From Candidatus Aenigmatarchaeota archaeon (lineage in GTDB: Archaea; Aenigmatarchaeota; Aenigmatarchaeia; CG10238-14; SpSt-28): a DNA stretch of 64,000 bases. Made by a program: the position numbers and the translations under genes. The notes under the pieces were generated by a model. That model saw nothing but the letters and a program-made list of their open reading frames with translations, was not told the DNA's origin and did no database searches. Numbering within the stretch: the stretch's first letter is position 1; every line of letters begins with the position of its first letter. Of this stretch, positions 16,747 through 64,000 are shown in pieces. The stretch lies in the NCBI GenBank assembly GCA_038997165.1, contig JAWBAK010000001.1, forward strand, positions 32,001-96,000, in the 5' to 3' direction.

Positions 16747-17694
16747 TTAAGAAATAATAAATCCCATTATTTGAGAAATAACAATTTGAATTGCAAAATA
16801 AAGTAATAAAGAAATGGTTAAAATTATTGGAAAATATTTAATACCTATTTTTTCATTTCCTTCTTTTAAAGCTCCTATTATCATGCTAGAGAAAAAAGAA
16901 GTTATTAATATAGATAAAATTGCAAAATTTCTTATAAAATTTACATCTATATCAATTCCTTTAAAAGATAATGGAATATTAATAGGAATTTTTGCTTCAA
17001 ATCCTTTTGGAGCAAGAGTTTGAATTGTATAAACAAAATATGTTGTTATTCCAAACAATATTGGCATACCAAAAGAAACAGCGAAAAATATAAACATTGT
17101 GTATAAACTTATTATTGAACTTAATTCTTTTTTTAATACATTTCTGCTTCTTAAATCTTCGCTAATTTCAAATAATAAATCAGAAATTTTGGAACCTTTT
17201 TTAATTCCTTCCTCAAGTAAATATAAAAATCTTTGAAGTGTCTCTATTTTATATTTTTTTGAATATTTTTTTAAAACTTCTTCTATAGGCTTTCCACTAT
17301 AAATCTCTTTTCCTATATTTCTAAATATCTTATCCAAAATCCCAAATTCTTTTCTACAACTAGCTAATATAGCTGCTTCTAACGTTAATCCGCTTTTAAT
17401 ATTTGATGAAAAAAGACTAATAAATTCTGGTAAATTAACTTCAACCTTTTTCTTTGAATTTTCAACGCTTAAATACAATAAAAAAACAAAAGTTAAAAAA
17501 CCTATTAAAAAAGAGAAAAAAGCTAAAAATAAATTTTTAGATAGAAAAAATATCAACGAAAAAAGAATAAGTGAAAAATAAATTTGAGAAATAACAAAAC
17601 TTTTTTCGTTAATTTCGGTTTCTAAATATTCTAATTTTTCTTTTATCCATCTTAAATAGCTTTTTGGAATAATTGCTTCTAATTTTAAACCCAT
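16747..17694 (-). CDS. T2SS-F/TadC-like pilus platform membrane protein
   Basis: NLPEFISLFSSNIKSGLTLEAAI..EFGIL plus several TM segments; in an operon with the pilus ATPase. Confidence 0.9.
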   Translation of the reverse strand: MGLKLEAIIPKSYLRWIKEKLEYLETEINEKSFVISQIYFSLILFSLIFFLSKNLFLAFFSFLIGFLTFVFLLYLSVENSKKKVEVNLPEFISLFSSNIKSGLTLEAAILASCRKEFGILDKIFRNIGKEIYSGKPIEEVLKKYSKKYKIETLQRFLYLLEEGIKKGSKISDLLFEISEDLRSRNVLKKELSSIISLYTMFIFFAVSFGMPILFGITTYFVYTIQTLAPKGFEAKIPINIPLSFKGIDIDVNFIRNFAILSILITSFFSSMIIGALKEGNEKIGIKYFPIILTISLLLYFAIQIVISQIMGFIIS

Positions 17695-18557
17695 GGTCTT
17701 TTTGATTTAATTATTCCAATAAAATTAAATTGAACAAAAGCAATTAAAGCTAATATTATATATAAAAACTCTTTTGGAATTTTAATTCCTATAAAACTTG
17801 TTAATAATAAAATTACTATTAAACCCATTGTTGGAAAAATTATACAAAACATCATAAATGATAGGGCAATTGGATTAAGAGAAGATGCATATTCTCTTAT
17901 TTCAGCTCTTTGTTCATTAACTATATTATTTACAATATCTTTTAATACATCAGAAATTTCTACTCCACTTCTCAAAGAATTTATTATTTGCCACATTACT
18001 TTTCTAAATTTTTGGGATGGAATTTTCAATGCTAATTCTTCTAAAACTTGAATTTCCGAATAGCCAGAAGAAATTTTTTTAACAGCTTCTTTAAATTCTT
18101 TACTTAATATTCCATAATCTTGAGATGAAATAGATAAAAAGGCATTATATAAGGAAACGCCACCCCTTAATTCTATTAATAAATGTCTTAAAACATGTGG
18201 TAAATTTTTTTCAACATCTCTAACTTTTCTAGATACTAAAAAAGATGGAAAAAGAATAAAATAAATAAATACAAAAGAGGAAAATACTAAAGAGAGTATA
18301 AGTGAAATTGAAAAAATGTTTGCTTTTGAAATGATTCCAATAAAAAATAAAATTGAAAATAAAGTTAAAAACCAGTGAATAGAAGAGTAAATTGCTAACG
18401 ATAACCATTCTCTTTCATCGTAAGAAATATCTGCTTGTTTTAAGGTAATTTCTAAAGGTAAAATTTTTGAAATTTTATCTGCTAATATAAAAATAAAAGA
18501 TTTTTTAGAAATTTTTAAAATTGTTTCAGGTTTCATAGGTAAAAATGGTATTCTCAT
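17685..18557 (-). CDS. T2SS-F/TadB-TadC-like pilus platform membrane protein
   Basis: NLPHVLRHLLIELRGGVSLYNAF..YGILSKEF, PSQKFRKVMWQIINSLRSG, IIFPTMG. Confidence 0.9.
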   Translation of the reverse strand: MRIPFLPMKPETILKISKKSFIFILADKISKILPLEITLKQADISYDEREWLSLAIYSSIHWFLTLFSILFFIGIISKANIFSISLILSLVFSSFVFIYFILFPSFLVSRKVRDVEKNLPHVLRHLLIELRGGVSLYNAFLSISSQDYGILSKEFKEAVKKISSGYSEIQVLEELALKIPSQKFRKVMWQIINSLRSGVEISDVLKDIVNNIVNEQRAEIREYASSLNPIALSFMMFCIIFPTMGLIVILLLTSFIGIKIPKEFLYIILALIAFVQFNFIGIIKSKRPWV

Positions 18558-18691
18558 AATAAGAATATGTGATATTGCAACAATTATAATTTTATTTTAA
18601 CAAATCTATTGTTGAATATTTTGAAAGAAGCTATCGAGATTTCTATTTAGATAAAAAATAGCTTGATACACTAAAATTAATGAAATTTAAA

Positions 18692-20167
18692 CTAAAGGAA
18701 AATTTTTGGAGATTTTTTATTGTTCAATGCGTTTAAAACTTCTTCTCTATTTCTATAATATAAAGCAATTATTTTTCCTATATTTTCAGTTCCATTTAAA
18801 TCGTTTTCAATCATCCATTTTAATATTTTTTTCTTTTCTTCCAAATCGTCCAATTGCTCTTTTTTAGATAATCCAGTAAATAATTCTAATTCTTCATGTA
18901 TTCTTAAGCTTTCATTAGCTTTTTTGATTTCATCAATTTTTGCATCCCATCTATATAAATCATTAACCTTTTGAGGTAAAAAGGGAACTACTTCACTAAT
19001 TTGTAATAACCTTCTTATTCCTTTTCTTCTTTCTCTAAACATTACAGCAAATAAATGTAAACTTTCCATTAAAGTTTCTGGAACATTAATTGGTTCATGA
19101 GTTAATCTTCTATATGCTTGCTCTGCAGTTTCTGCGTGTAAGGTTGCATATACACTATGACCAGTATGCATTGCTTCAAATAATACTTCAGCTTCTTCTG
19201 CCCTTCTTATTTCTCCAACAACTATTCTATCTGGACGCATTCTTAAACTATTTACTAACAAATCTAACATTTTTATTTCTCCTTTACCTTCTGCACCAGC
19301 AGCTCTAGTAACTAAAGGAACCCAATGATGAAAAGAAGAAATGGAAAGTTCTCTAGTATCTTCAATGCTAACAATTCTTTGATTTGGAGGAATAAATTCT
19401 AAAATTACATTTAATAATGAAGTCTTTCCACTACCTGTTCCACCTGCAATTATTATATTTAATTCGTATTGAACTGATTGCCATAAAAAAGCTGCAGCAT
19501 CTAATGAAATTGTTTTATTATTTATAAAATCAATAACAGTCCAAGGATTTCTTCTAAATTTTCTTATTGTTATAGTATTTCCAAAAGAACTTATTGGATA
19601 TAATGTTGCATTTACTCTATCTCCACTTAATAAATAAGCATCCATTAATGGATTTAAAATATTTATTTGTCTACCAACTCTTCTTCCAATAATACTTGCT
19701 ATATTGTAAATTTCTTGTTCGTTTTTTAAATAAATGTTCGTTTTCAACCAACCAAATTTTTTGTGATATACCCAAATTGGTTCTTTTGAATTATTAATTG
19801 CTATTTCTTCCAAATTTGGATCCTCTATCAACAAATCTATTATTCCACTACCAATCATTTCTATAGTAATTAAATTTGCTAAATAATTTGCATCACTTTC
19901 TTTAATTTTAATTAATTTTTTTATTTCTTCTTTAGCTTGTAAAAAAATTTCATTTTTTAGTTTTTCATATGCTTCTTTATCTAAATTTTCCCTAATAGGT
20001 ATTTTTGAAATTAATTTTTCTTTTATTTCTTCTTTTAAAATTTCTGTACCTCTTTCTAATTTTGGTAATTTAATTTCATAATAACTAACAAAATCTCCTC
20101 TATCAACAATTTCTACATCTGCAGAAATAAAATCTAAATTTATTTTATATTTTTCTAAAATTTTCAT
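18692..20167 (-). CDS. Type IV pilus assembly ATPase (CpaF/VirB11/ArlI family)
   Basis: DPNLEEIAIN, ITIRKF, Walker A GGTGSGKT, SIEDTREL, LRMRPDRIVVGEIR, His box MHTGHSVYATLHA. Confidence 0.96.
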   Translation of the reverse strand: MKILEKYKINLDFISADVEIVDRGDFVSYYEIKLPKLERGTEILKEEIKEKLISKIPIRENLDKEAYEKLKNEIFLQAKEEIKKLIKIKESDANYLANLITIEMIGSGIIDLLIEDPNLEEIAINNSKEPIWVYHKKFGWLKTNIYLKNEQEIYNIASIIGRRVGRQINILNPLMDAYLLSGDRVNATLYPISSFGNTITIRKFRRNPWTVIDFINNKTISLDAAAFLWQSVQYELNIIIAGGTGSGKTSLLNVILEFIPPNQRIVSIEDTRELSISSFHHWVPLVTRAAGAEGKGEIKMLDLLVNSLRMRPDRIVVGEIRRAEEAEVLFEAMHTGHSVYATLHAETAEQAYRRLTHEPINVPETLMESLHLFAVMFRERRKGIRRLLQISEVVPFLPQKVNDLYRWDAKIDEIKKANESLRIHEELELFTGLSKKEQLDDLEEKKKILKWMIENDLNGTENIGKIIALYYRNREEVLNALNNKKSPKIFL

Positions 20168-20760
20168 TTTTTCTTTATTATTATATTTCCTAAACTATAA
20201 CTTATTTCTATTATTCCATGTTTTTCTAAAATTTTTAAATTTTGCTCTAAATAGCTTAAATCCTCATTTAATTCTTTAGATAATTCGTTTAAACTAATTT
20301 GCTTTTTTTCTTCTAAAATTTTTAAAATTTTGTCTATTAAAGTAAAAATTTTTTCCTTTCTTTCTTCTTTTTCTTCTTTATAAAAAATTTTTAATATATC
20401 CAATTTACTAACTATTCCTATAACTTTATATTCTTTATCTACTATAGGAATTCTAGAAATATCATATTTTATCATTAATTTAATTAATCTTTTAATTGAT
20501 GTATTTTCTCTTGCAACTATTAATCTTCTTTTTCTTTTAATTATCTCTTTAACTTTTAATTTTTCCAATTCTTTCTCATTATACTTTTCAGAAAGTTTAA
20601 CTATATCTGTTTGAGAAATTATTCCAACAATTTTTCCACTATTATCAATAATTGGTAAACCAGAAATTTTATTTTTTAACATTTTTAAAGAAACTTCTTT
20701 AATTGTTTCATCTGGTCTTGCAAAAATAATATTTTTACTCATTATATCTTTAGCTTTCAT
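20164..20760 (-). CDS. CBS-pair protein with C-terminal winged-helix-like domain
   Basis: KAKDIMS, ISGLPIID..GKIVGIISQTD, ISRIPIVD..VIGIVSKLD, then TLIDKILKILEEKKQISLNELSKEL..LEKHGII. Confidence 0.88.
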   Translation of the reverse strand: MKAKDIMSKNIIFARPDETIKEVSLKMLKNKISGLPIIDNSGKIVGIISQTDIVKLSEKYNEKELEKLKVKEIIKRKRRLIVARENTSIKRLIKLMIKYDISRIPIVDKEYKVIGIVSKLDILKIFYKEEKEERKEKIFTLIDKILKILEEKKQISLNELSKELNEDLSYLEQNLKILEKHGIIEISYSLGNIIIKKK

Positions 20761-20786
20761 AAAAATAGTTTTTCGACATAATATTT

Positions 20787-21173
20787 ATGAAAATTCAAAG
20801 CGCATTAGAATATTTATTAATTTCAAGCTTTATATTAACAATAATAATAATTGGTTTTTCGTTTGCGTTTAGAGAAAGTACGCATCAAATTTTTCAAATA
20901 AATATTAGACAAATAGAAGTAAATCTTCAAAAAATAATATATTATTCAGAATTAGTATTTTCCCAGGATACTCCAGCAAAATATACTTTAAAATTAAATT
21001 TTCCAATAGAAACGAAAATATATAATATTTCAAATGTTTTAATAGCTGAATATTCAAACAATAAAATTTCCTATCCTTTAAATTTTAATATTTTTGTTAA
21101 TGAAAGTTTTTTTGGTTTTATTACTATAGAAATAAAAAATGAAGGAAATTATGTCAAAATTAAAAAAATTTAA
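20787..21173 (+). CDS. Pilin-like protein with class III signal peptide
   Basis: MKI-QSALEYLL followed by a hydrophobic helix (Q+1, E+5). Confidence 0.8.
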   Translation: MKIQSALEYLLISSFILTIIIIGFSFAFRESTHQIFQINIRQIEVNLQKIIYYSELVFSQDTPAKYTLKLNFPIETKIYNISNVLIAEYSNNKISYPLNFNIFVNESFFGFITIEIKNEGNYVKIKKI

Positions 21174-21534
21174 AAATCAGTTTTCACTAGAATATTTTGT
21201 CGGTTTTTTTGCCTTATTTTCATTACTCTATATATTTTTCTATGTTTATTTAGATTCTAATAAAAAGTTTGTAGAATTAATAAATTTTTTTAATGAAGAA
21301 AGTGAATGTTATTTTTTGGCTTCCAAATTTAATTCCTTATTTCCAATAATTGTTAGAAATATTACATATATTGAAGAATTTTATATAGATTTAAAAAATT
21401 TTGCAAAAATAGAAAATTATAGAATTTTTATTGGAAATGTTAGTTGTTTTACAAAAATTGAAAAAATTGAAGGAATAATAAAAAATGGAAAAAATATAAT
21501 AATAGTTGAAAATGGAAATGTTAAAGTTATTTAA
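21151..21534 (+). CDS. Pilin-like protein with class III signal peptide
   Basis: Likely start is the ATG at 21151 (track gives 21139): MSKLKKFKN-QFSLEYFVG plus a hydrophobic helix. Confidence 0.72.
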   Translation: MSKLKKFKNQFSLEYFVGFFALFSLLYIFFYVYLDSNKKFVELINFFNEESECYFLASKFNSLFPIIVRNITYIEEFYIDLKNFAKIENYRIFIGNVSCFTKIEKIEGIIKNGKNIIIVENGNVKVI

Positions 21535-21982
21535 ATTGCAAATTACATCAATAGAATTTTTAATAGCATTAATAATTTTTATTTTTTTAATTCTAACTCT
21601 TTTTACTATTCAAGTAAAAAAAATAAATGAATTTTTAGAGTATTATGAAGATTTAACTCTTTTAAGAGATTTAGATACAATAGAAGTTTTATTAGATATT
21701 GAAGGAAAACCAAAAGATTGGAATAGTAGTAATTTTGAAGTTTTAGGATTAAGAACGAATGGAAAAATTGATATGAAAAAAGTAAATTATTTAAGGGAAA
21801 TTGACTATAAAGATTTGAAAAAATATTTATTAATAAGAAATGAATTTTGTATAAAAAATTTTGAAGTAGGAAATTGTAGTTATGAAAATTCTCAAAAAAT
21901 TTTTGTTAGAAAAAAAATTGCTAGTATTCTAATTAATAATTTTTCTTATTTAGATGAAATAAAGATAATTGTTTGGAATTAA
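21518..21982 (+). CDS. Pilin-like (minor pilin) protein
   Basis: Likely start is the ATG at 21518 (track gives TTG at 21506): MLKLFKL-QITSIEFLIAL; GKPKDW..GL; ends KIIVWN. Confidence 0.72.
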   Translation: MLKLFKLQITSIEFLIALIIFIFLILTLFTIQVKKINEFLEYYEDLTLLRDLDTIEVLLDIEGKPKDWNSSNFEVLGLRTNGKIDMKKVNYLREIDYKDLKKYLLIRNEFCIKNFEVGNCSYENSQKIFVRKKIASILINNFSYLDEIKIIVWN

Positions 21983-21985
21983 ATT

Positions 21986-23965
21986 ATGAAAGCAATTTCT
22001 TTCTCATTAGATATAATTCTATCGTTAACAATTTTTTCTTTTTCATTAATTATATTTTTTTATTTTCTTTCTATAGAAAATATAGGTTTTAAAAATTTAA
22101 ATAATTTAACTATATATCAAGAATTAGAAAAGAAGAATTATGCAAATGAAATTTTATTATCTTTAATTTCTACAAAAGTAAAAGAAATTAATTTTTCAAT
22201 TCAAAATTTAAGTAATTATATTAGCAATGATGATTTTGAAAAATCTTTAGCAGAAATAATTTCATCTTTTTATCTTTCTGGAATTTATAGCTCTAATCAA
22301 ACATTAAAAAATATAGCTAAAGAAATTTTAGAGGAATTTTTAAAAGAAATAAACAATAAATATTGTATTGAAATAAAAATTGGTAATGAAAGTATTTACA
22401 AAAATTGTGAAAATTATTCATCCTTAATTCAAACTTCCTCTTTATTTATTAGTGGATTAGAATATGGAAGACCTATTAGTGGATATATTGCAAGAGCTTG
22501 GTTAACAAAGTATAAAAAAGTTACTACAGAAATTATTGATTTTTTAGTTAGTGGTTCTGGTTGGAAAGTTATTGCAAATAGAGGTGGGGATTTTGAATAT
22601 TATAAAAATTTTTATATTTCAGATGATAATGAAATTCTTAATGCAATTTTATTTGTCTCAATTCATGTTGGAAATATAAGAACAGAAACAGCTTTATTTA
22701 AAAATTTTTATGTAAACAATTGTAATATTAGAAACGATGTCTTAAATAATATATTATATTCTCAATGCGAAGGTAGTGGAACAGAAATTACATGTGCAAT
22801 ATTTTCAATAGTTAATATTACTAATTGTATTAAAAAAGGTAATAATATAGTTAGAATTGAAGTTGGTTCTCCTCAAACATATCATGCACATTTTCATCCT
22901 GGATTTAAAATTTCTTTAGATTTAAAGAAATCGGAAAAATTAAAAGAAGAAACAAATGAATTTAAAGAAAGGATTTATTTTGATAGAATAATTGGAAGAA
23001 CTGGTGCCTGGGTTATAATTCCATTCTTTATTCCAGAAAATGCAATCTATTATAATGCTACTTTAAATTTAATTGCTTTAAATGTTGAAGATACTTATCT
23101 AAAAAATAGAGGAATAAATACAAGTGATATAATAATTTTTTTAAATTCAAAAGATCCAATTTTTAAAGATGGTGAAGATAAAATTGATATTTTTTATCCA
23201 TACCAACCAAATTATTGTAATTCAATAGATAGTAGAAATTATTATTGTAGTAGAGATGTTGCTTCAACTAAAAATTTTGTTTTAACTTTAAATTTAACAC
23301 CATATTTAATTAAAGGAACAAATACTTTATCAATTTATATAAATTCTTTTGGTGATTTTCATTGGGGTATAGACTATGCAGAAATCTCTAATGAAAGTTA
23401 TATAGAAATTTATTATATACTTAATGAATCTAGCTTAAAATATGGAGAAATTGATATAAATAAAGAAATAATATTTGGAGGAAAAGCAGAAAATCCCAAA
23501 ATTTTTTATTATAATAGAAGTGAAGAAAAAATTATTTCTTCTTTTGTTCATTTAGTTCAAGGATTTAGCTCTATGATTAATGCATCTATTAATAATTTTT
23601 CTTTTTATATTTCTCCCTCTCCTAGAGCTGTACCTTCTCATTTCTATTTAACTCCAAGTTTAATAAAATTTGGAAATAATTCAATAGAAATTAAAGATAT
23701 TCAACCAAGCGGAAGTTTAAGTCCAAGTAATTATATTTTACCATGGACTTCTTTAGAAATAAAATATGTAGTAAAAGGTTTAGTTGGATATGGAAATGTT
23801 TTTGAAAATAAAGAAGATGCAATAAATGATGCAATAATAAGATTAAAAAATCAAATTGGTAATGTTGAAATAGAAGATATATATGTAGAAACTCAAGATG
23901 TTTTTGGAGTTAGATGGCTTATTGGACCAGAAATATTAAAAGTAATAGTATGGCCAAAGGATTAA
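21986..23965 (+). CDS. Large minor pilin/adhesin-like protein, 659 aa
   Basis: MKA-ISFSLDIILSL class III-like N-terminus; beta-rich Cys-containing middle; ends KVIVWPKD. Confidence 0.7.
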   Translation: MKAISFSLDIILSLTIFSFSLIIFFYFLSIENIGFKNLNNLTIYQELEKKNYANEILLSLISTKVKEINFSIQNLSNYISNDDFEKSLAEIISSFYLSGIYSSNQTLKNIAKEILEEFLKEINNKYCIEIKIGNESIYKNCENYSSLIQTSSLFISGLEYGRPISGYIARAWLTKYKKVTTEIIDFLVSGSGWKVIANRGGDFEYYKNFYISDDNEILNAILFVSIHVGNIRTETALFKNFYVNNCNIRNDVLNNILYSQCEGSGTEITCAIFSIVNITNCIKKGNNIVRIEVGSPQTYHAHFHPGFKISLDLKKSEKLKEETNEFKERIYFDRIIGRTGAWVIIPFFIPENAIYYNATLNLIALNVEDTYLKNRGINTSDIIIFLNSKDPIFKDGEDKIDIFYPYQPNYCNSIDSRNYYCSRDVASTKNFVLTLNLTPYLIKGTNTLSIYINSFGDFHWGIDYAEISNESYIEIYYILNESSLKYGEIDINKEIIFGGKAENPKIFYYNRSEEKIISSFVHLVQGFSSMINASINNFSFYISPSPRAVPSHFYLTPSLIKFGNNSIEIKDIQPSGSLSPSNYILPWTSLEIKYVVKGLVGYGNVFENKEDAINDAIIRLKNQIGNVEIEDIYVETQDVFGVRWLIGPEILKVIVWPKD

Positions 23966-25146: not shown

Positions 25147-25156
25147 ATTTTAATTT

Positions 25157-25897
25157 ATGGAACTAAAAAAGATTTTAATTTCTTTATTTTTAACGTTTTT
25201 TGTTATTTTTCTATCTTATTTAACTTCTAAATCTATAGTTCAAATAGCAAAGATAGAAAAAAATATAGATAATAAAACCAACGAAAATATAAATATTAGT
25301 AATATTATTTCTGAAGAAAAAAACGAAAGCAAAAATATTATAAATATAAATAATGAAAGTTTTGAAAATAAAACAGAAAAAGAAATTTTTATAGAAAAAA
25401 TAGAAAAAAATAAAGATATTTCTTATGAAAATAATAAAATAAAAATTGTTAATTATACTAAATTTGAAGAAGCCTATATATATGATATTTGCTATACAAA
25501 AGAAATTTTAAGCATAGAAGGAAAAAATTTTGTTTGTTTGAATGAAATTCCAAAAAATATAGGAATTTTTGTTGAAGATAGTAATTTAAAAATAATATAT
25601 AATGATATATTAATAAGGGAAGAAAAATTAAGCGATAAAATATTGTTAGGATATGCTTATGCAAAAGATTTTTATGGTGTTGAAGGTGAAATAGAGAAAT
25701 TTTATACTAATTCTACTATAGCTTATATAGAAGATTTTGGTTTAGGGAATATAGAATATTTTGGCTATAAAATTGTTTATGCATACTTTCCAATTTATTT
25801 AAATTCTATATATATTAAAAATGAAACAATACATATTTTTGTTAAAACTTCTATGAAAGATTATCTTATTTCCTCTATAAATATCGACAAAAAATAA
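25157..25897 (+). CDS. Membrane-anchored hypothetical protein
   Basis: N-terminal hydrophobic helix, N/E/K-rich linker, beta-rich C-terminal domain. Confidence 0.7.
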   Translation: MELKKILISLFLTFFVIFLSYLTSKSIVQIAKIEKNIDNKTNENINISNIISEEKNESKNIININNESFENKTEKEIFIEKIEKNKDISYENNKIKIVNYTKFEEAYIYDICYTKEILSIEGKNFVCLNEIPKNIGIFVEDSNLKIIYNDILIREEKLSDKILLGYAYAKDFYGVEGEIEKFYTNSTIAYIEDFGLGNIEYFGYKIVYAYFPIYLNSIYIKNETIHIFVKTSMKDYLISSINIDKK

Positions 25898-53608: not shown

Positions 53609-53610
53609 TT

Positions 53611-54843: not shown

Positions 54844-57800
54844 AAAAAATATTAATAATAGCTATATTTTTGTTTTTTGGTTTATTAATATCCTTTTTTA
54901 TTTCAAATTTCACAGGATTTTTTGTTTATAGATATGTAGAAGATAAATGGTGGAATTCTAGTTATAATTTTAGAATTAAAATAGAAATTGATAGTAGTGA
55001 TTATGTTAGAACTAATTGGCCAATAGAGATTTTTATAAATTTTACCAAAAAGTTAGAAGAATTAAATATAAGCGGAAACTTAGATTTAAATTCTTTAAGA
55101 TTAGTTGAATATGATAACAACGGCAATCCAATAGGAATTATTCCATTTCAATTCGATATAGAAGAAAATTTTAACAAATCAAATAATGCAGTTGGAGAGC
55201 TAGTTTTCATTTTAAACGGAACAAACAATGCAAAAAGAAAATTTTATTTATATTTTGACATAGAAGAAAATGGCTTAAAAGAAAGAGTAGAATTTCCAAC
55301 AAATCTTTCTTATTCCATAGAAAACAATTTAATTAAAATTAACACAACCGGATTTATTTTTACATTAGCAAATACATCTAATAAATTTGGTTTTGTAAAT
55401 ATTGAAAGAAAAGAAGAGTTTGGCGGCTTATATATATTTTATCCATCCGATATCCCTTTTGAATATTCAACAACATATAATCAATCCCATCAGTTTTTCT
55501 ATATTCCATATGATTTAGAAATTATTGAAGGTCCAATAAGATTGGGGATAAAAGTAAAAATGGTTGAAATAGATAATTTTGGAAATATAACTGGAATAAA
55601 CTATACGAAGACATATTACTTCTATAATTATGCTGGCCCCGGAAGTTTAGAAGATGTAGCTGCTAATTTAGTTAAGATTAAGCAAAAGTTCTTAGGTAAT
55701 GCTATAAGGTTTTCAAACTATTCTTTTGGATTCGAAGTATCTAATTTATATGGAGATCCTCAAGTAAATATTGGATTTGATGTAAATCTAAACAATCCAT
55801 ACTCATATGCTTATGCATTTAGAGGTTCTTTTAGCGCCATGATAATTAACCTAAATTATTCTAATATAGAATTTTTTGCAAATAGCGATAGCGAAAGTTT
55901 TATAGGTTTTTACTTTAATGAAAATGAAATAAATAATGCTGAGCATATTGGCTTAGCTTTTTTTGGTATATTATCTACACCAGAAGAACAAGAATATCCA
56001 TATAAAATCTTAAATGGATTTTCAAATCCAATAAGTATCAATATTTATAGTACTGAAAATAGAGAAGTTATATTTGGAGTTCATACTGAATTTGATATAT
56101 ATAATAGAGGGGAAAATGTAAAAATTGTTGCATATAACATTTCAGATCCATACAATCTTGTATCTTATGTAATTGCAAGAATTGATAGAGGAACAGAAAA
56201 TGAAAACGATGATATAATTTTAGAATTATTCGATGATGGGCAACATAACGATAATTTACCAAATGATAAAATCTTTGGAAACAACTTTACTATTTTACCT
56301 ATTGATGAAATTGGAATTTGGAAAATAAAAATTTATGTTTTCGATTCTAATAATGTATTGCTAGCAACTAATGAAACTTATTTTAATGTTACAAATATTT
56401 TGCGCGTAGAAACCAATATAATTAATAAACATGGAGATGTTAATAGAATTTTACAAGCTTTAGTTAATGTAAAGAATTTTAGAGAAGATGAAAACATAAC
56501 AAATGCAGAAATAAAATGTTTTGATAATGGAATTGAAAAAGAAATAGATGTATTAAATTTTAATAACGGAACTTATTTAATTTCTATTAATTCCTCTAGT
56601 AATCCAGGATATAATATTTTAAACTGTTCGGCATCATATTTAAATAATAGCGGATATGATTTCGATATATATGATTCCACAGATGTTATAACTTATCTTT
56701 CTATAGAAGCTATTCCAAATTCGTATTTTGCTGAAAACATTACATTTTATTCTAGTGAAAGCTTCAAAGTAATTATAAATGTTACTAATTTACACATAGG
56801 TTACGCTTATGATGTTAACATAACATTTAATACTTCAAATTCCATTGAAGTAATCCCAGAAATAGAATATTGTGATAATATTTACATCGAAGAATATTGT
56901 ACAAAAGAATTTATAGTAATAATAAAAAATGCAACTTTACCTAACGTATATAATATAACTGCTATAGTAAATTGGAGAAATCATGACGAAAGCTATAGCT
57001 CTAACACAACAAATATAACTATTGAAGTAAAGAGTAATAAAATTTTAGAAATTTATCCAGATGAAATTTTTAGTGTGAATCCTCCTGGAAAGGAAACATA
57101 CTTAGGCAAAATAATTCTTAATTCTACTGGAAATGATTTTGTTTATAACATTTCTTTTTCTTCTAATATTACTGATTTAGAGTTTATATTTAATCCAAAT
57201 ATAAGTTATATAGAGCCTGGAAAAATAGTTGAAATAAATGTTAATGTTAGTATTCCATTAGGATATCCTGCTGGAACTTATTATGGAATTATAAATGTTA
57301 GTAGTGAAATTGGATATAAAGAAATTAATTTAACTTTAAAGGTTAGCGGAACAAATGCAACAATAGAAATTTATCCAAATTATTATTTTGCCGAAAATAT
57401 TACAACTTTAACATCGGAAAGCTTTGAAGTTATAATAAATGTTACTAATATAGGAAATGTAGATGCCTTCTTTTCAAACATTTCTATAGAATTGCCAAAT
57501 GACAATTTTTCTTCTAACATAACTTTTTTTGATTGTGGAAATCTATCTGCAAAAGAAAGTTGTATTATATTTGTAAAAATAAATATAAAGGAATTAACAT
57601 TACCAAACATATATGAAATAATTTATTTCTTCAATTGGACTGATATAGGTTTAGAAAGTAGAAGCATAAGTAATAAAACTATTGTTGAAGTAAAGAGTAA
57701 TAAATTTTTAGAAATTTATCCAGATGAATTTATAGTAAGTGCTAATCATAACGAAACTAAAAATATAGGCAAAATAATTCTTAATTCTACTGGAAATGAT

Positions 57801-60566
57801 TTTGTTTATAACATTTCTTTTTCTTCTAATATTACTGATTTAGAGTTTATATTTAATCCAAATATAAGTTATATAGAGCCTGGAAAAATAGTTGAAATAA
57901 ATGTTAATGTTAGTATTCCATTAGGATATCCTGCTGGAACTTATTATGGAATTATAAATGTTAGTAGTGAAATTGGATATAAGGAAATATTGCTTAACAT
58001 AACTATTTTGAGAGATGGGTTTTGGATTATAGATAAGGATTATTGTGAAGCTACGTTTTATCCACCTATTGGAATAGTTTGTGAAATAAATATAGAAAAT
58101 TTGGGAAATATACCATTAAACTTTAATATTACACCAAAAGAAGTAAATTATACCTGGATTAATGTAACTGATTTTACTATTTATCCACAAACAAACTATA
58201 GTTTTGAAATTTATTATGATGTTAGAAATGCTCCATTAGAGTTTATTTATGCTACATATAATATAAGCGCTATAGAAGTGGATGCAATACCTAAGTTTAG
58301 ATTAATAAACATAAGCTTAAGACCATTTATTGGTGCAATAGCAAACCTAACTATTTTTCCAAATATAACTTCGCAATCCTCTAACATAACAATTAATGCT
58401 TCTGTATTCGATAGAAGTGGAATTGGTATGGATTATGTAATTGCAATAATACAAAAACCAGATGGTTTAACAGAGAATATAACATTAACTAAAATCTCGG
58501 AAATCAATAGAACTTCTGTTTGGATAGGAAATTTTAGTAATACTACACTAAGCGGAAAATATTTTGTAATTTTGGAGATGAAGGATAATGCAAACATAAC
58601 TACTTATGCCTATGGTAATTTTTCTGTATATAAAATTCTGTTTCCAAACATATACATTAATAAAGATGAATATGAAAGAGGGGAAAGCATTTCTATATAT
58701 TTTAATTTAGTTGATTATGCCAATATTGGTATTGATAATGCAAGCGTAAGATTAAGAGTATTTAATCCAAGCGGATACAAAATATTCGATGAAATATATG
58801 TAACTGAAAATGGGAAAATTCCTATAGCAGTTATTAATATACCGACAGATGCAGAATTAGGTAGCTATTCTATTATTGCTAACATAAGCTATTACGACGA
58901 AATCAAAGAAGATTTTTCTTATTCGAGTGATTTAAAAAGTTTCTTAGTTGTTGAAAAACCAAAAATTTCTCTTTTTGCAGATTTAGAAACGAGTGTAGTA
59001 TGGTATCCAGAAAATGTAATAAAATTTGCAATGACTTTCTATGATAATAGAGGAAATCTTTTTGATCCAGATTATGCAGAGCTAAACGTTTTTGATCCCG
59101 CAGAAAACTTATATTTTTCAAAAAATATAAGCGAATTTAAAAAAGAAAGCTTAGGTTTCTATACTTTAAAGTATGCAATGCATCCCTATACTGCTACAGG
59201 TGCATACTTAGCTATTTTGAATTTTAGTAAAATGAATATTTCTTCAATAAAAACAAAAATGTTTAGGGTAAGTGCTGGTGGACCTTTTGACTTAAAAGTT
59301 AATCTTCTAAAAAAAGAGGTAGAAAGAGGAGATTTGCTACCTTTTGAAATTACAATAATTAACATGGGTGAAGTTAGTATGGATGTTTTTATTGAATATT
59401 ATGTAAGTGATAAAGATGGTGAAGTTTATTATTATTCTAGTGAATGGATTTATTCGCCAGCAGCATCAAATAAAACAATTTTAAGAAATGTTTATATATT
59501 TTCTAATCAGCCGCTAGGCTTACATTATTTAAATGTTATTATGACTTATGATACTATAAAACCTCCACTAAAAGTTAATGAAAGTTTTATTGTAATTGAG
59601 AAAATTGAAAAACCTGCACCAATACATAAACCGGTTCAACCAACGATACCAATTGTTGAAATTGCTCCAATAACTCCAAATATAACTAAAAATTATAGTA
59701 TCGAATTTTTATATATACCTAAAGAGGTAAGAGTTGCTGCTGGTGAAGAAAAAAGTTTTTTAGTTGTAATAAAAAATGATGGAAATCAACCATTAACTAA
59801 TGTTGAAGTCAAATTATTAGGAATTGATACTAGCTGGTATAAAATAAAAAATGAATCATTAAAGTTTTTTGATGTAAATCAGACTATTATTTTTGAAATA
59901 ATTTTACTAATTCCAAAAAATATAAAGCAACAAGAAATTAACGTTGTGTTTTATTTTAAATCTTTTGAATTTTTTACATCTAAAGAATTTATATTAAAAA
60001 TATTTCCATCTTTAGAAGAAATGTTACTAGATGAATTAAAAGAATTAAAATCAAAATTAATAGATTTAAAAATTAAAACTTATGAAGCAAAAATACAAAA
60101 TAAAAATGTTAGTGAAGTAGAAAAAATAATAACTAAATGCGAAGAATTAATTAAATTAATAGAAGATTTAATCAAATCTAAAGAATATACAGAAGCTAGT
60201 ATAAAACTATATGAATTAAGAAGTTTAATAGATAAAGGTTATTATTTGCTAGAAATTGCTACATTTATAATAAAATTTGAATGGGAAAAATTTTTGTTCA
60301 TCATTACTTTAATAACTATTATTTCTGGAATAATCTCAATAATTATACTCTATGTATTAAATACTAGAAAACTACAAAAAATAACTTATAAAGCTGTCGA
60401 AAGTACAATTCAAGAACTTAAAAAGATAAAATTCGAAAATAAAAAAGAGGAAATAGAAAAAACTAAAAAAATTTTAGATATTCTAGAAAAAGAATATAAA
60501 GAAGGAATTATTTCAAAAGAAACTTACGAAGAATTAAAAAAGAAATATGAAGAAAAATTGAAATAA
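54840..60566 (+). CDS. Large surface protein, 1908 aa: signal, DUF2341-like N-domain, Ig/CARDB-like repeats, TM, SHOCT-like tail
   Basis: WWNSSYNFRIKIEI..FYLYFD; LFDDGQHND..NDKIFG acidic loop; TM FLFIITLITIISGIISIIILYVL; tail EYKEGIISKETYEEL. Confidence 0.85.
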   Translation: MKKILIIAIFLFFGLLISFFISNFTGFFVYRYVEDKWWNSSYNFRIKIEIDSSDYVRTNWPIEIFINFTKKLEELNISGNLDLNSLRLVEYDNNGNPIGIIPFQFDIEENFNKSNNAVGELVFILNGTNNAKRKFYLYFDIEENGLKERVEFPTNLSYSIENNLIKINTTGFIFTLANTSNKFGFVNIERKEEFGGLYIFYPSDIPFEYSTTYNQSHQFFYIPYDLEIIEGPIRLGIKVKMVEIDNFGNITGINYTKTYYFYNYAGPGSLEDVAANLVKIKQKFLGNAIRFSNYSFGFEVSNLYGDPQVNIGFDVNLNNPYSYAYAFRGSFSAMIINLNYSNIEFFANSDSESFIGFYFNENEINNAEHIGLAFFGILSTPEEQEYPYKILNGFSNPISINIYSTENREVIFGVHTEFDIYNRGENVKIVAYNISDPYNLVSYVIARIDRGTENENDDIILELFDDGQHNDNLPNDKIFGNNFTILPIDEIGIWKIKIYVFDSNNVLLATNETYFNVTNILRVETNIINKHGDVNRILQALVNVKNFREDENITNAEIKCFDNGIEKEIDVLNFNNGTYLISINSSSNPGYNILNCSASYLNNSGYDFDIYDSTDVITYLSIEAIPNSYFAENITFYSSESFKVIINVTNLHIGYAYDVNITFNTSNSIEVIPEIEYCDNIYIEEYCTKEFIVIIKNATLPNVYNITAIVNWRNHDESYSSNTTNITIEVKSNKILEIYPDEIFSVNPPGKETYLGKIILNSTGNDFVYNISFSSNITDLEFIFNPNISYIEPGKIVEINVNVSIPLGYPAGTYYGIINVSSEIGYKEINLTLKVSGTNATIEIYPNYYFAENITTLTSESFEVIINVTNIGNVDAFFSNISIELPNDNFSSNITFFDCGNLSAKESCIIFVKINIKELTLPNIYEIIYFFNWTDIGLESRSISNKTIVEVKSNKFLEIYPDEFIVSANHNETKNIGKIILNSTGNDFVYNISFSSNITDLEFIFNPNISYIEPGKIVEINVNVSIPLGYPAGTYYGIINVSSEIGYKEILLNITILRDGFWIIDKDYCEATFYPPIGIVCEINIENLGNIPLNFNITPKEVNYTWINVTDFTIYPQTNYSFEIYYDVRNAPLEFIYATYNISAIEVDAIPKFRLINISLRPFIGAIANLTIFPNITSQSSNITINASVFDRSGIGMDYVIAIIQKPDGLTENITLTKISEINRTSVWIGNFSNTTLSGKYFVILEMKDNANITTYAYGNFSVYKILFPNIYINKDEYERGESISIYFNLVDYANIGIDNASVRLRVFNPSGYKIFDEIYVTENGKIPIAVINIPTDAELGSYSIIANISYYDEIKEDFSYSSDLKSFLVVEKPKISLFADLETSVVWYPENVIKFAMTFYDNRGNLFDPDYAELNVFDPAENLYFSKNISEFKKESLGFYTLKYAMHPYTATGAYLAILNFSKMNISSIKTKMFRVSAGGPFDLKVNLLKKEVERGDLLPFEITIINMGEVSMDVFIEYYVSDKDGEVYYYSSEWIYSPAASNKTILRNVYIFSNQPLGLHYLNVIMTYDTIKPPLKVNESFIVIEKIEKPAPIHKPVQPTIPIVEIAPITPNITKNYSIEFLYIPKEVRVAAGEEKSFLVVIKNDGNQPLTNVEVKLLGIDTSWYKIKNESLKFFDVNQTIIFEIILLIPKNIKQQEINVVFYFKSFEFFTSKEFILKIFPSLEEMLLDELKELKSKLIDLKIKTYEAKIQNKNVSEVEKIITKCEELIKLIEDLIKSKEYTEASIKLYELRSLIDKGYYLLEIATFIIKFEWEKFLFIITLITIISGIISIIILYVLNTRKLQKITYKAVESTIQELKKIKFENKKEEIEKTKKILDILEKEYKEGIISKETYEELKKKYEEKLK
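57103..57982 (+). repeat. 217-bp perfect direct repeat (57103-57319 and 57766-57982), offset 663 nt = 221 codons
   Basis: Base-by-base identical; encodes GKIILNSTGNDFVYN...SSEIGYK twice. Confidence 0.93.
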
Positions 60567-60599
60567 ACCATATTTGTTATTTATAGTGATAAATTATTT

Positions 60600-61367
60600 A
60601 TGGCAGAAATTATAGCCTTTTTATCTGGAAAAGGTGGTGTTGGTAAGACTACTATTGCAATTAACATAGCAAACGTTTTGTCGACATATTTTAGAAGAAA
60701 AGTATTAATTGTCGATACAAATTTTACAACCTCTCATTTGGGTTTAAGTTTAGGAATTTTTTATCCAGAAGGAAATTTAAATAAAGTATTAAGAGGAGAA
60801 ATGAATGTTGAAGATGCTATACATAATTATTCTTTAGGTCTTGACTTATTGCCGCTATCTTTATCTATTAGAGATTTAGAAGGGATTGATATATTAAAAT
60901 TTCCAAGAGTTTTAGAAAGTGTTAATTACCGATATGATTATATAATTTTAGATGCAGCTCCAGGACTCGGAAGAGAAGCTATTTTATCTATTAAAAATGC
61001 TAATAAAATAGTTTATATTGCTCTGCCTATAATGCAAAGTGTTGTAGATATAGTTAGAACTCAAGAAGTTGTAAGAGAGTTTGAAAAAAAAGAATTAGGA
61101 ATTATATTAAACATGGTTAGAAACAAACCTTATGAAATGAGAGATAACGATATTGAAGGATTAACAAATTTAAAAATAATTGGAAAAATTCCATATGATG
61201 AAAGATTTTTAATTTCAAATGCACATAAATTGCCCTATACAACCCTTTATCAAAATAACAAAACTTATGAAGAATTTCTAAAGATTTGTAGTATTTTAAC
61301 AAATCAAAAAATAGAAATTAAAAAAAGTTTGTTTGGAAGAATATTAGAATTTTTATTTAAAAAATAA
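60600..61367 (+). CDS. MinD/ParA family ATPase
   Basis: Deviant Walker A SGKGGVGKTT, YDYIILDAAPG, GIILNMV, GKIPYD; amphipathic C-terminus SLFGRILEFLFKK resembles the MinD membrane-targeting sequence. Confidence 0.93.
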   Translation: MAEIIAFLSGKGGVGKTTIAINIANVLSTYFRRKVLIVDTNFTTSHLGLSLGIFYPEGNLNKVLRGEMNVEDAIHNYSLGLDLLPLSLSIRDLEGIDILKFPRVLESVNYRYDYIILDAAPGLGREAILSIKNANKIVYIALPIMQSVVDIVRTQEVVREFEKKELGIILNMVRNKPYEMRDNDIEGLTNLKIIGKIPYDERFLISNAHKLPYTTLYQNNKTYEEFLKICSILTNQKIEIKKSLFGRILEFLFKK

Positions 61368-61379: not shown

Positions 61380-61607
61380 ATGGTTTACAATATAAGTTTA
61401 ACATTAATATTAGCTATATTACTAATTAGTATCTCTTTTTTATTTTTATTAATATATAAAAAAAGAAAGAAGAGTATAGATGAATTAATACAAGAAATTG
61501 AAAATAATCTATTAGATATTAAAAAAAATCTAGAAAATATTCGTTTAATTTTAAAAAAAGAGCAAAAAGAAATAAAGAGAAAACATGCCAGAAAGAGGAG
61601 CATTTGA
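61380..61607 (+). CDS. Small single-TM coiled-coil protein
   Basis: N-terminal hydrophobic helix, KKRKK stop-transfer, short coiled coil. Confidence 0.65.
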   Translation: MVYNISLTLILAILLISISFLFLLIYKKRKKSIDELIQEIENNLLDIKKNLENIRLILKKEQKEIKRKHARKRSI

Positions 61608-63486
61608 AGAATTATTAATAGAAGTTGCTACTAAAATAGCTGAATTAGAAAAAAAAATAAAGAGTGGAAGTTCTGAAGAAATAAAAAGAGTTGAAGAAAA
61701 TCTTCAAAATCAAATAAATGAGCTATCAAAAGTATTAAACGAAATTGCAAACGAAGTTAAGAAAAAAAGAAGAGAAAAAGATCAAACAATAGATTTAATT
61801 AGGTCAAATATTGAAGAAAAATTGAAATTATTCGAGGAAAAACTAAAAAATTTAGAAAGAATTGATTCTATAGAAAGCGAATTAAGAAAATTAAGAGAAG
61901 AAAGAGAAAAAAAAGATGATTTTTTTGGAGATTTGATTAGTGCTTATGAAAAAGAAAAACAATTAAAAATAAGTGATAAAATTGAAGAAATAGATAATAG
62001 ATTAAAAAATTTAGAAGATGTAATAAAATTCGTTAAAGATGAAATCCATAAAATTAGAGAATTGGAAGAAATAAAAAAATCTAATTTAGAACATGAAAGA
62101 AGAATTTCATATTTAGAAAATTTTCTTAAACCAGATAAAATTATAAAATTTGAACAAATAGATAACTTTTTCAACAAGGAACTTCCAAAAAGATTAGATA
62201 AAGAATTTCAAATAAGAGCTGAAGTGCTAATAAAAGATATAAAAAATCTAGAAAACGAAATAAATAAATTAAAAAGTTTTTTATTGAGCAAGTCTGGAGA
62301 AATTGGATTTCTACTAAAAGAGGTTAAAAAAATTTCTGATATAGAAAATAAAATAGAAGAAATTTCAAAAAATACTTATAAACTAAATAATATATTAAAA
62401 GAATTAGAAAACGTAAATCTTATAAATAAAAATGAAGTTGAAATATTAAAATTAAAAATTAATGAAATAGATAAATATGTAAATGAAAATTTAAAAATTT
62501 TTGAAAAAATTAAAAATAACATACATCTATTTCAAAAGATTTTAGATGAACATGAAGATATAAAGAAAAATATTGAAAAAGTAAATGAAAAAATTATTGA
62601 ATATGCAAACGAAATAAAAATATTTGAGGAAAAAATAGAAGAAATTAAAAAAAATCTAAAGAATTTAGTCAGTGAAGATTTATTAAAAGTTGAAATTGAA
62701 AAAAATGAAAACAATTTTAATGAAATAAATAAAAATTTTGAAAAGCTCAAATTAGATTTAAGTTTGATTAAAAAAGAAATTGATAATTTAAAAACATTTT
62801 TTGAAATTAATAAAATACAAAACATTGTAAATAATTTTAATGGAATTTTAAGAAATTTATCTTTAATAAATCAAAGAATTGCAAAACTCGAAAATATTAT
62901 TAATTTAGAAAAAATAGAAGAAAATGAAAAAAATTATAAAAAACTAGATAATAGAATTATAAATTGCGAATTAGAAATAGAAAATATTAAAGAAGCTTTT
63001 CTAAATATTGAGAAATATTATAAAGAAAATATATCTTTTTTAGAGAATGTTAATATAAATTTAAATGCTTTGAAAAAAATATTAGCTGAAACAACCGAAA
63101 AAATAAGAAACTTTGAAAATTTTGTAAATACTAATAATCAAAAATCCAACCAAATTTTAAGTGAATCAGTAAAAATTTTAAAGATTATAAAATCTATTGA
63201 AAAAGAAATAAATGAAAAATTGTTTGAAATAACGAGTATAGAAAATAAAATTAAATCGCTTGAAAATTTAAAAAGAGATGTTGAAGAAATGAAAAAAGTT
63301 TATAGCAATTTTGATGCCAAAAAAATTGAGGAAAAAATATCTAGTATTATCGAAAAAATTAGATATATACAAGAGTTTGATAAAAACGAAATTGAAAGAA
63401 TAAAATTAGATGTAATAAATTTAGAAAAAGAAATAAAAGCACTAGAAAAAAAATATTTAGAAATTATTCAATTTCTTAAAGAATGA
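61585..63486 (+). CDS. Long coiled-coil protein, 633 aa
   Basis: Continuous E/K/I/L/N heptads; no ATPase head or hinge motifs seen. Confidence 0.82.
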   Translation: MPERGAFEELLIEVATKIAELEKKIKSGSSEEIKRVEENLQNQINELSKVLNEIANEVKKKRREKDQTIDLIRSNIEEKLKLFEEKLKNLERIDSIESELRKLREEREKKDDFFGDLISAYEKEKQLKISDKIEEIDNRLKNLEDVIKFVKDEIHKIRELEEIKKSNLEHERRISYLENFLKPDKIIKFEQIDNFFNKELPKRLDKEFQIRAEVLIKDIKNLENEINKLKSFLLSKSGEIGFLLKEVKKISDIENKIEEISKNTYKLNNILKELENVNLINKNEVEILKLKINEIDKYVNENLKIFEKIKNNIHLFQKILDEHEDIKKNIEKVNEKIIEYANEIKIFEEKIEEIKKNLKNLVSEDLLKVEIEKNENNFNEINKNFEKLKLDLSLIKKEIDNLKTFFEINKIQNIVNNFNGILRNLSLINQRIAKLENIINLEKIEENEKNYKKLDNRIINCELEIENIKEAFLNIEKYYKENISFLENVNINLNALKKILAETTEKIRNFENFVNTNNQKSNQILSESVKILKIIKSIEKEINEKLFEITSIENKIKSLENLKRDVEEMKKVYSNFDAKKIEEKISSIIEKIRYIQEFDKNEIERIKLDVINLEKEIKALEKKYLEIIQFLKE

Positions 63487-64000
63487 GTGAAATTCTCGAA
63501 ATATTGAAAAAGAAAAAAGAATATGAAAAAATTAGAGAAGAAATTAAGAATGTATCAAACAAATTAAGTCAATTAGAAAATAATTTTATTTATTTAAATA
63601 GAGAATTTAATAATCTAAAAGAGGAATTTAATAAACTTAAAGAATTAGATCCTATACTTTCAAAATTATTAGAAACTATAAAAAAAATTGAGGAATTTGA
63701 AACAAATATAAAAGAAATTAAAGATTTAAAAGAGAAATTGAAAATAGATTTAGAGAAAAAAACAAAAAAGAAAATAATTAAACTAATAGAAAAATTAAAC
63801 TTAAAAGAAAATATTAAAAAAGATATAGAAAAAGAAATGAATAAAATTTTAAATGAAAAAATTAATGAAATTGAGAAAAAATATTGGAAGGATTTATCTG
63901 AAATAAAGGAATTGAGAAAAAACATTGAAAATTTAAAAATTGAAAAGAATAGATTGAATGAAAAAATTTTTGAGTTTGGAAAAATTGAAAATTATTTAAA
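63483..64000 (+). CDS. Coiled-coil protein (partial, runs off the window)
   Basis: ATG at 63483 overlaps the previous stop (ATGA); MSEILEILKKKKEYEKIREEIKN... stays open to the window end. Confidence 0.78.
   Translation, partial: MSEILEILKKKKEYEKIREEIKNVSNKLSQLENNFIYLNREFNNLKEEFNKLKELDPILSKLLETIKKIEEFETNIKEIKDLKEKLKIDLEKKTKKKIIKLIEKLNLKENIKKDIEKEMNKILNEKINEIEKKYWKDLSEIKELRKNIENLKIEKNRLNEKIFEFGKIENYL

Follow-up and report, generated by a model that had tools for sequence, protein, structure and literature searches.

A 64,000-nucleotide stretch of the genome of a Candidatus Aenigmatarchaeota archaeon (assembly GCA_038997165.1, contig JAWBAK010000001.1, positions 32,001–96,000 of the forward strand; called the window and numbered from its first letter) was analysed, mainly between positions 16747 and 64000, where an initial annotation had proposed an undescribed host-contact apparatus made of pili, a giant ATPase-fused surface protein, a SHOCT adaptor, MinD and coiled coils. 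Two separable surface modules, adjacent to each other in this species, are probably present: a type IV filament (pilus) locus, and a module around a giant protein of the SPEARE type that would work in the manner proposed below. A single apparatus including the pilus was not borne out, because the pilus genes form a self-contained locus that is unlinked to the giant gene outside the genus and relocated within it; the attractive assumption that the adjacent pilus is part of the giant-protein machine is thereby corrected. The giant gene, the coiled-coil gene after it, the gene of a 1,908-residue protein and MinD were confirmed as a module kept together across DPANN lineages (47–74 loci, 41 genomes). 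Scattered components in relatives, or identity with a known system, had been named as what would speak against the proposed apparatus, and the separation of the pilus supplies half of this. Pilus and module are read as two machines with perhaps a peptidase or a lifestyle in common, not as one operon. The SPEARE-type module spans 26060 to about 68025. The features of the region are as follows.

16747–18557, minus strand: two TadC/FlaJ-type platform genes (split platform; 315 and 290 residues; Pfam T2SSF 47 and 68 bits)
18692–20167, minus strand: type IV filament assembly ATPase of the FlaI/TadA class, 491 residues (Pfam T2SSE 130 bits)
20164–20760, minus strand: protein with a CBS pair and a winged helix (Pfam CBS 104 bits; weak helix-turn-helix (HTH) matches)
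20787–25146, plus strand: five pilin-like genes of 128, 131, 158, 659 and 410 residues (from their N-termini)
25157–25897, plus strand: 246-residue secreted protein, final gene of the pilin block (signal-like N-terminus)
25898–26059, no strand: spacer of 162 bp containing T-runs and, twice, the rare hexamer TCGACA (sequence)
26060–53608, plus strand: SPEARE-type giant surface protein, 9,182 residues (single open frame; DUF87/HerA match at the end)
30905–45694, plus strand: tandem repeat modules of ~320 residues in the ectodomain, residues ~1616–6545 (seed search)
52406–52483, plus strand: single membrane helix, residues ~8783–8808, with a basic stretch after it (sequence and hydropathy; helix 3–47 in the model)
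52532–53605, plus strand: HerA/VirB4-class P-loop ATPase core (to ~53398) and three-helix C-terminal tail (AlphaFold2 model)
53611–54843, plus strand: coiled-coil partner, 410 residues; three SHOCT-like helices, core motif E..E.R invariant (34-sequence alignment)
54840–60566, plus strand: 1,908-residue second surface protein, C-terminal membrane helix 1815–1845 and cytoplasmic tail of ~60 residues (SHOCT-like motif at the tail end)
60600–61367, plus strand: MinD/ParA-family ATPase with basic amphipathic C-terminus (Pfam AAA_31, CbiA and ParA above cut-off)
61380–64000, plus strand: 75-residue membrane anchor (61380–61607), 633-residue coiled coil and start of a 218-residue coiled coil (to 64139); order kept in the congener G004

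Conservation of the giant-protein module

Homologous loci were collected by scanning one genome per prokaryote species with an alignment of the ATPase tail of the giant protein. At least 591 stretches were confirmed, and the 80 most similar were used for counting; most of these bear the label Aenigmatarchaeota, and Micrarchaeota, Nanoarchaeota/Woesearchaeota, Altiarchaeota, Parvarchaeota and others account for the rest. A coiled-coil homologue follows on the same strand in all 74 loci that have at least 1.5 kb of downstream DNA, separated from the giant gene by no more than 100 bp in 61 of them. Where at least 9 kb of downstream DNA was available (47 loci), a second anchor protein of ~1,900 residues was found in 36 and MinD in 21, KaiC in two (near the second anchor) and type IV filament genes in one.

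The same linkage was seen among 41 related genomes. The tail gave a strong match in 25, and the coiled-coil partner was found with a family profile in 24, all within these 25 and adjoining the tail; in the 16 genomes without a tail the profile found no partner at E ≤ 1e-30. In the tail-bearing genome G003 the partner appears only as a weak match at a contig edge. The coiled coil, MinD and a protein of ~1,950 residues follow downstream of the giant gene in eight genomes that represent several families.

Other small genes recur in the module elsewhere. A multi-pass membrane protein of ~150 residues with an H-E-x-x-H motif occurs inside it in L028–L030, L033, L038, L040, L041, L045, L050, L051, L055 and L098, often beside a small P-loop protein or two coiled coils of ~100 residues with the SHOCT-like motif; no counterpart was seen in the window. 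The genome under study has a second, shorter system (C1:406100-434705) with an ATPase-tailed surface protein of at least 3,109 residues, convergent coiled coils of 536 and 348 residues (the latter a relative of the partner family) and MinD upstream. No RNA dataset was listed as containing positions 51001–61000, and the stretch occurs in hot-spring DNA runs from several studies.

The type IV filament locus

An archaeal type IV filament locus of Epd-like ‘system 1’ type occupies 16747–25897 and is conserved as a unit across the order. It was assigned to system 1 because it has an ATPase and two platform genes, the latter being the defining trait in PMC13705601 (2026), which reports the system from many Nanobdellati (DPANN) genomes; this and the other papers are cited from the passages of them that were available. 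The initial annotation had argued from the pairing of VirB11-like and VirB4-like ATPases in translocation systems. This argument fails for the window, whose VirB11-class ATPase sits with TadC-type platform genes and pilins and therefore belongs to a type IV filament, not to a type IV secretion pairing. The ATPase scores 286 bits with the NCBIfam FlaI model, under the cut-off of 550, and has orthologues of at least 52% identity in 24 of the 41 related genomes.

In five other genera the order of the locus is kept, with ATPase, split platform, CBS-HTH gene, three small pilins, two larger pilins (640–860 and 320–670 residues) and a secreted protein of ~250 residues. The CBS and winged-helix protein, whose gene stays beside the filament ATPase gene in other genera, is probably the regulator of the locus. 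The 246-residue secreted protein moves with the pilin block in the congeners G004 and G005; a secreted gene of 230–255 residues stands at the matching position in four other genera, and the proteins are not linked by BLAST.

The five genes called pilin-like gave no match in a Pfam scan. Their N-termini have a basic stretch, then Q or a small residue, then a hydrophobic helix; class III-like starts (K-x-Q…E-[YF]) are present in three, whereas the 659- and 410-residue proteins start with K-A and K-G. The model of the 659-residue pilin (nine sequences; predicted local distance difference test (pLDDT) score 78.9) has an N-terminal helix at 2–30, a helical domain and several beta-sandwich domains, and its top Foldseek rows are carbohydrate-binding-type modules and viral jelly rolls with template modelling scores of just 0.1–0.2; by this model it may be adhesin-like.

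A probable major pilin of 125–137 residues lies inside the locus in four of the five other genera, and none is there in G022. The major pilin of the window's pilus is likely to be encoded elsewhere in the genome. A candidate was noted on another contig (C2:24981-25445), with the start M-K-S-K-A-Q-A-A-L-E-F. As a candidate prepilin (class III) peptidase, the genome has a single Peptidase_A24 match, again on another contig, with 23.6 bits (below the cut-off of 26.5).

With the Epd pilus and system 1 the locus has in common an ATPase with a pair of platform genes, several pilins in which Q follows the cleavage site, a large adhesin-like pilin and a major pilin gene that probably lies outside the locus. 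It differs in having no dedicated prepilin peptidase gene and in the CBS-winged-helix gene at the head of the ATPase operon; its pilins have I, L or N before Q, where relatives have G, A or S. In cluster-2 DPANN archaea, including Aenigmarchaeota, pilus ATPase and platform genes are reported to be linked with long coiled-coil proteins (Hamm et al., preprint 10.1101/2023.02.24.529834, available passages). A coiled-coil gene likewise follows the platform genes in G022, whereas the coiled coils of the window lie 40 kb off, behind the giant-protein module. In G003 (contig 15, 1323–4316) the orthologous filament ATPase was matched as two pieces in one frame of 1,012 codons, and the interruption may be an inserted element such as an intein.

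Linkage of the filament locus and the giant gene

The pilus block lies directly ahead of the giant gene in two of the three informative genomes of the genus, namely this genome (G000) and G005; in G001 the contig stops right after the pilin block, and its giant gene is probably just unassembled. This position, with the pilin block immediately upstream in both genomes, would suit one integrated host-contact organelle of pilus and giant-protein module, in which for example the filament machinery processes or deploys the giant protein. We consider this unlikely, since the arrangement dissolves in relatives. The congener G004 carries the entire block (platform gene through secreted protein) 28 kb downstream of its giant gene, with a helicase-like gene after the block. 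In G012, of another genus, the pilus locus is 320 kb from the giant gene on the same contig. In G012, G007 and G022 the 20 kb immediately ahead of the giant gene hold no filament genes, and in G009 none were found from 4 kb upstream onward; only one of the 47 loci has them within 10 kb downstream.

Three weak signals speak for the integrated organelle and against a complete separation of the modules, the first being co-occurrence. The filament ATPase has an orthologue in 20 of the 25 tail-bearing genomes and in four of the 16 without a tail (G001 among the four), and the 659-residue pilin in 19 of 25 and three of 16, a contrast that is inflated by kinship among the genomes; moreover, five genomes have the module without this pilus, and three or four the pilus without the module. 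The N-terminus of the giant protein (K-V-K-L-Q and a hydrophobic helix) points the same way: it is one of 13 class III-like starts among 626 open reading frames (ORFs), the others being mostly pilins. Orthologous giants of three other genera begin with a basic stretch that leads through G-Q into a hydrophobic helix; pilins in these lineages have K-[S/A/G]-Q, while in the window pilins and giant alike use K-[I/L/N]-Q. Short members of the giant family, however, carry ordinary cleavable signal peptides. The paralogous ATPase-tailed gene of the same genome has a second type IV filament locus ~11 kb downstream of it.

The hexamer TCGACA, which in this species precedes the pilin operon as well as the giant gene, is a further point for the integrated organelle. 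It has 49 sites in the 652-kb genome, six of them intergenic, and three of these six are in the 162-bp spacer and the 26-bp divergent gap. Upstream of the giant gene there are three copies in the window (25884–25996, one in the last codons of the preceding gene) and three in G005 (L108:3640-3755); ahead of the pilin operon there is one (20773–20778), confined to this species and absent in G004 and G005. The hexamer may be a regulator site. As proof that pilus and giant are co-regulated it was rejected, given the confinement of the pilin-side copy to this species.

Architecture of the giant protein

The giant open frame is not a chance product; it runs for 27.5 kb uninterrupted in DNA of 24% G+C, and related genomes hold tail-bearing open frames of up to 13,242 codons. 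After a hydrophobic N-terminus (residues 7–36), an extracellular part of ~8,750 residues has immunoglobulin (Ig)-like and CARDB-like Pfam matches along its length. A 330-residue seed found ten more copies of a module of ~320 residues between residues 1616 and 6545 (24–28% identity). Near the membrane are a Cys-rich motif and a Gly/Pro/Ala linker. N-x-S/T sequons number 310 in the ectodomain (3.55 per 100 residues) and zero in the 372-residue tail, against a baseline of 0.43 per 100 residues in twelve cytosolic proteins of the window; this split supports the predicted topology, and the ectodomain is predicted from it to be glycosylated.

The proposed fusion of a giant surface protein with an ATPase is real, although the cytoplasmic part has only ~370 residues and the true membrane helix is at ~8783–8808. 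A stronger hydropathy peak at residue 7836 was rejected as an anchor; it contains R and E and sits in sequon-rich Ig-like sequence. Short complete members of the family (~725 residues) retain the same gene neighbours, so the conserved core consists of the membrane and cytoplasmic part, and the ectodomain can expand. Right after the N-terminal hydrophobic helix, the motif N-x-T-G-[F/R]-F-V was noted in both the giant and the 1,908-residue protein, and also in the giant of G012.

The last ~370 residues were modelled by AlphaFold2 with a pLDDT of 90.4. The top Foldseek match was Sulfolobus HerA (4d2i, E 1e-13), followed by SIR2-HerA and HerA-NurA complexes. VIA Z scores against 48,161 chains were 25.6 for HerA, 24.2 for DndH-C, 23.0 for VirB4 (4ag5), 18.4 for TrwB, 17.3 for TcpA, 17.1 for FtsK and 17.0 for EccC, with 257 residues aligned to HerA 4d2i and 237 to VirB4 4ag5 at 14–19% identity. 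From these fold scans, ‘HerA-like’ and ‘VirB4-like’ are both fair labels at the level of the fold. Like HerA of Sulfolobus solfataricus (PDB 4d2i) and VirB4 (PDB 4ag5), the tail has a RecA-like HerA-FtsK core with intact Walker A and B motifs; unlike HerA, it is membrane-tethered behind a giant ectodomain and has no NurA partner in the locus, no NurA-like gene being found in the window. Across phyla (30 sequences, 45–69% identity) the Walker A motif G-x-x-G-x-G-K, the Walker B D-E and several Arg residues are invariant, a pattern that argues for an active enzyme under strong constraint.

No curated NCBIfam model came near its cut-off with the tail. The best was CedD (44 bits against 600, E 1.5e-11); the HerA equivalog models gave 25–31 bits (cut-offs 800–970), a TraC-F-type model 14 bits (cut-off 567) and TraD 22 bits (cut-off 366). 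A protein atlas search matched compact DUF87 ATPases of phages and unnamed archaeal clusters, and yielded no name for the tail or the coiled-coil partner.

Comparison with SPEARE proteins

For the attachment of DPANN archaea to their hosts and the uptake of material from them, SPEARE proteins are the main published candidate, and only the giant protein itself has been discussed so far. In the available passages of PMC6642349 (Hamm et al. 2019), the SPEARE proteins of Nanohaloarchaeota are very long and mostly extracellular, have a membrane helix close to the C-terminus and keep a conserved part inside the cell; the protein was detected by proteomics, Aenigmarchaeota, Woesearchaeota, Micrarchaeota and Altiarchaeales are reported to have relatives, and every ectodomain is said to hold a laminin-G domain. 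In those of PMC10266531 (2023), the intracellular part is re-read as a VirB4/TraG-like ATPase with a coiled coil, a secretion ‘straw’ is proposed, and cultured nanohaloarchaea have a gene for a second VirB4-like ATPase downstream of the giant gene. A role in host contact has thus already been proposed in print for SPEARE proteins.

The window giant fits this layout and appears from its sequence to be a very long new member of the published kind. It shares the very long ectodomain with adhesion-type Ig-like domains, the N-terminal export signal, the one membrane helix near the C-terminus, and the conserved cytoplasmic P-loop domain followed by coiled-coil helices (three C-terminal helices in the window giant); the homologues found here span the same lineages as those listed in the available passages of PMC6642349. 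The tail homologues carry PF01935, and many also have a precomputed ResIII match (PF04851), which fits the ‘restriction enzyme’ label used in 2019 in that paper.

The apparatus had been called undescribed. This no longer applies to the giant, whose type was published in 2019 and re-read in 2023, and it appears to hold for the partner set, which was found in no literature searched. The coiled coil, the second anchor with matching tail and MinD are absent from the available passages of the SPEARE papers (‘MinD’ has no word match in either, ‘coiled’ one in PMC10266531), in a search confined to main texts. Nor are the partner genes described in the available passages of PMC4158269, PMC6393860, PMC8784108, PMC11329633, 10.1101/2023.10.27.564410, PMC9563170 and PMC9765267. 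The conserved partner set thus appears to be undescribed in print. With a constant coiled-coil partner, a second anchor with a matching tail motif and a frequent MinD, binding and activity experiments become feasible on small soluble pieces, and the handling of a 1-MDa protein is avoided.

Partner proteins of the module

The family of the coiled-coil partner (34 sequences) has a central core with an invariant E..E.R, three motif helices and variable low-complexity linkers. The helix motif, L-x-x-L-x-x-x-Y-x-x-G-x-I-S-x-x-x-Y, is well conserved; the SHOCT name given in the initial annotation is less secure, as PF09851 scored only 21.5 bits against a cut-off of 27. At E ≤ 0.01, four of the 34 members matched PF09851 and two SHOCT_2. 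The helices are called ‘SHOCT-like’ here because the Pfam SHOCT match is below threshold. Pfam and PDB profile searches with the family returned no named family and only coiled-coil noise (best PDB E 0.049).

The tail of the second anchor ends in the same kind of helix as that of the coiled-coil partner. A strict regular expression found this motif in 27 of the 31 homologues with complete C-termini, near-variants were seen by eye in the other four, and the remaining ORFs of these loci (75,192 residues) contained none. Complex prediction for the ATPase tail (residues 32–404 of the tail alignment) with the coiled-coil partner gave a score of 0.00 and a mark of 0.32, which counts neither for nor against an interaction.

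The call of MinD was confirmed by the deviant Walker A motif S-G-K-G-G-V-G-K-T-T at residues 9–18 and by Pfam matches above cut-off (AAA_31, CbiA, ParA); the minD_arch model scored 152 bits, below its cut-off of 202. Among 26 linked MinD proteins, GKGGxGK[TS] was found in 18 by strict regular expression, the misses being visible AKGG/GNGG forms and one over-long start. The C-termini of the linked proteins are basic and, by eye, amphipathic, as is typical of membrane-binding MinD.

Proposed working of the module and alternatives

In the proposed working of the SPEARE-type module, the ATPase tails would form a hexameric ring under the membrane, as their solved relatives do, and the ring would bundle six ectodomains into one long fibre. 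The coiled-coil protein would tie the ring to the tail of the second anchor through the SHOCT-like helices, and MinD and the long coiled coils would position the assembly at a single site and keep it there. The fibre would bind the host cell, and ATP hydrolysis would either move a polymer across the membrane at the contact site or remodel the fibre, two modes that homology cannot separate.

Besides the co-occurrence and N-terminal signals described above, several findings weigh against this account. Four overlapping Pfam scans of the whole window giant gave no laminin-G match at E ≤ 0.01 and matched Ig-like and CARDB-like families only, although some homologues of the giant do carry PF13385 or PF02210; Pfam detected no protease or toxin-like domain in the window giant. 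The gene that follows it encodes a coiled coil with SHOCT-like helices, unlike in the cultured nanohaloarchaea described in PMC10266531 (available passages), where it encodes a second VirB4-like ATPase. The only bridge to the type SPEARE proteins, those of Ca. Nanohaloarchaeum antarcticus and Ca. Nanohalococcus occultus, is a protein of 7,378 residues that carries the label Nanohaloarchaea and shares 57% identity in the tail. MinD is absent from 26 of the 47 loci and the second anchor from 11, within 10 kb. Ring formation, the SHOCT-mediated link, the role of MinD and the mode of action are all inferred.

Proposed in print for the nanohaloarchaeal homologues (PMC10266531, available passages) is a straw similar to type IV secretion, with the giant and its VirB4-like tail as a channel that injects effectors into the host. 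Thermoanaerobacter VirB4 is indeed within about 2.6 Z units of the tail's best match, and the coupling proteins TrwB and TcpA and the type VII ATPase EccC align too (Z 17–18). We regard the straw as quite improbable, as each giant chain has just one membrane helix, Pfam and NCBIfam detected no other type IV secretion family in the giant-protein module, the TraC/VirB4-type models stayed at 14–22 bits against cut-offs of 366–567, the next gene is a coiled coil in place of a second VirB4-like ATPase, and no candidate effector was identified.

An envelope-organising or division-linked scaffold, with MinD and the long coiled coils as its core and the giants as envelope or sheath components, is very unlikely. 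It would fit the order of MinD, small membrane anchor and several long coiled coils that is conserved in G004, the second MinD in another surface-protein operon just past the window end, and the positioning of surface machines by archaeal MinD proteins (PMC13705601, available passages). However, MinD accompanies the ATPase-tailed gene in only 21 of the 47 loci and the coiled-coil partner always does, and the module is missing from 16 of the 41 related genomes (which are incomplete), hard to fit with an essential envelope role.

A motor for DNA or nucleotide uptake like the archaeal Ced system, pulling in host nucleic acid at the contact site, is highly improbable. The best NCBIfam match of the tail is a DNA-translocating ATPase (CedD; CedB, TraB and TraD appear too), its closest solved fold is a DNA translocase, and DNA entry was speculated on in the 2019 SPEARE paper (PMC6642349, available passages); but the CedD match covers 65 residues around the P-loop with bits far under the cut-off (44 against 600), and no polytopic channel protein was found in the module. 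A long shot of much the same order is that the giant is a pilin-type class III substrate, cut by the peptidase, with its far end launched by the filament machine and its near end held by a ring ATPase in the SHOCT scaffold, an idea prompted by the class III-like N-terminus, the apparent covariation of the residue before Q in pilins and giant, and the co-occurrence of pilus and module. It would make of the giant a pilus-deployed, motor-anchored line of hundreds of nanometres (a rough estimate from ~85 Ig-sized domains) that catches the host and moves material.

Gene map and neighbouring genes

Base composition in the window is 22–30% G+C. The ORF listing and Pfam confirmed every gene of the initial map at its coordinates, as well as the 26-bp gap (20761–20786) between the divergent ATPase/platform side and the pilin-like genes and the 162-bp gap (25898–26059) ahead of the giant gene. 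The tight co-directional run described from 20787 was found, with the remaining plus-strand junctions overlapping or at most 33 bp apart, but it holds only if the 75-residue ORF at 61380–61607 is counted; otherwise there is a second plus-strand gap of 217 bp. This ORF has an N-terminal membrane helix and a 36% identical counterpart in a congener. Beyond the window the run goes on for ~4 kb to about 68025: the 218-residue coiled coil is followed by a 203-residue protein and then, as last gene, a 1,045-residue coiled coil.

A cytosolic protein of ~200–220 residues with the start F-W-L-I-W-x-N-C-A…S-L-F-x-I-Q is encoded just past the window (64271–64882 in window numbering), after the 218-residue coiled coil; in eight related loci (L059, L060, L063, L065, L067, L072, L074, L085) a protein with this start sits between the second anchor and MinD. 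A second MinD was also noted just past the window end, in another surface-protein operon.

All four ATPase families that had been counted in the window are there, although both KaiC genes lie at 11656–13055, outside 16747–64000. Within 5945–12390 the gene of a surface protein of 1,902 residues, which has a C-terminal membrane helix, precedes that of a KaiC-like ATPase by 3 bp. KaiC and this upstream protein proved to be unlinked to the system; the 1,902-residue gene and one KaiC gene are absent from the corresponding place in the near-identical congener G001. A nucleotidyltransferase gene at 13607–14734 is also missing from the corresponding spot in that genome.

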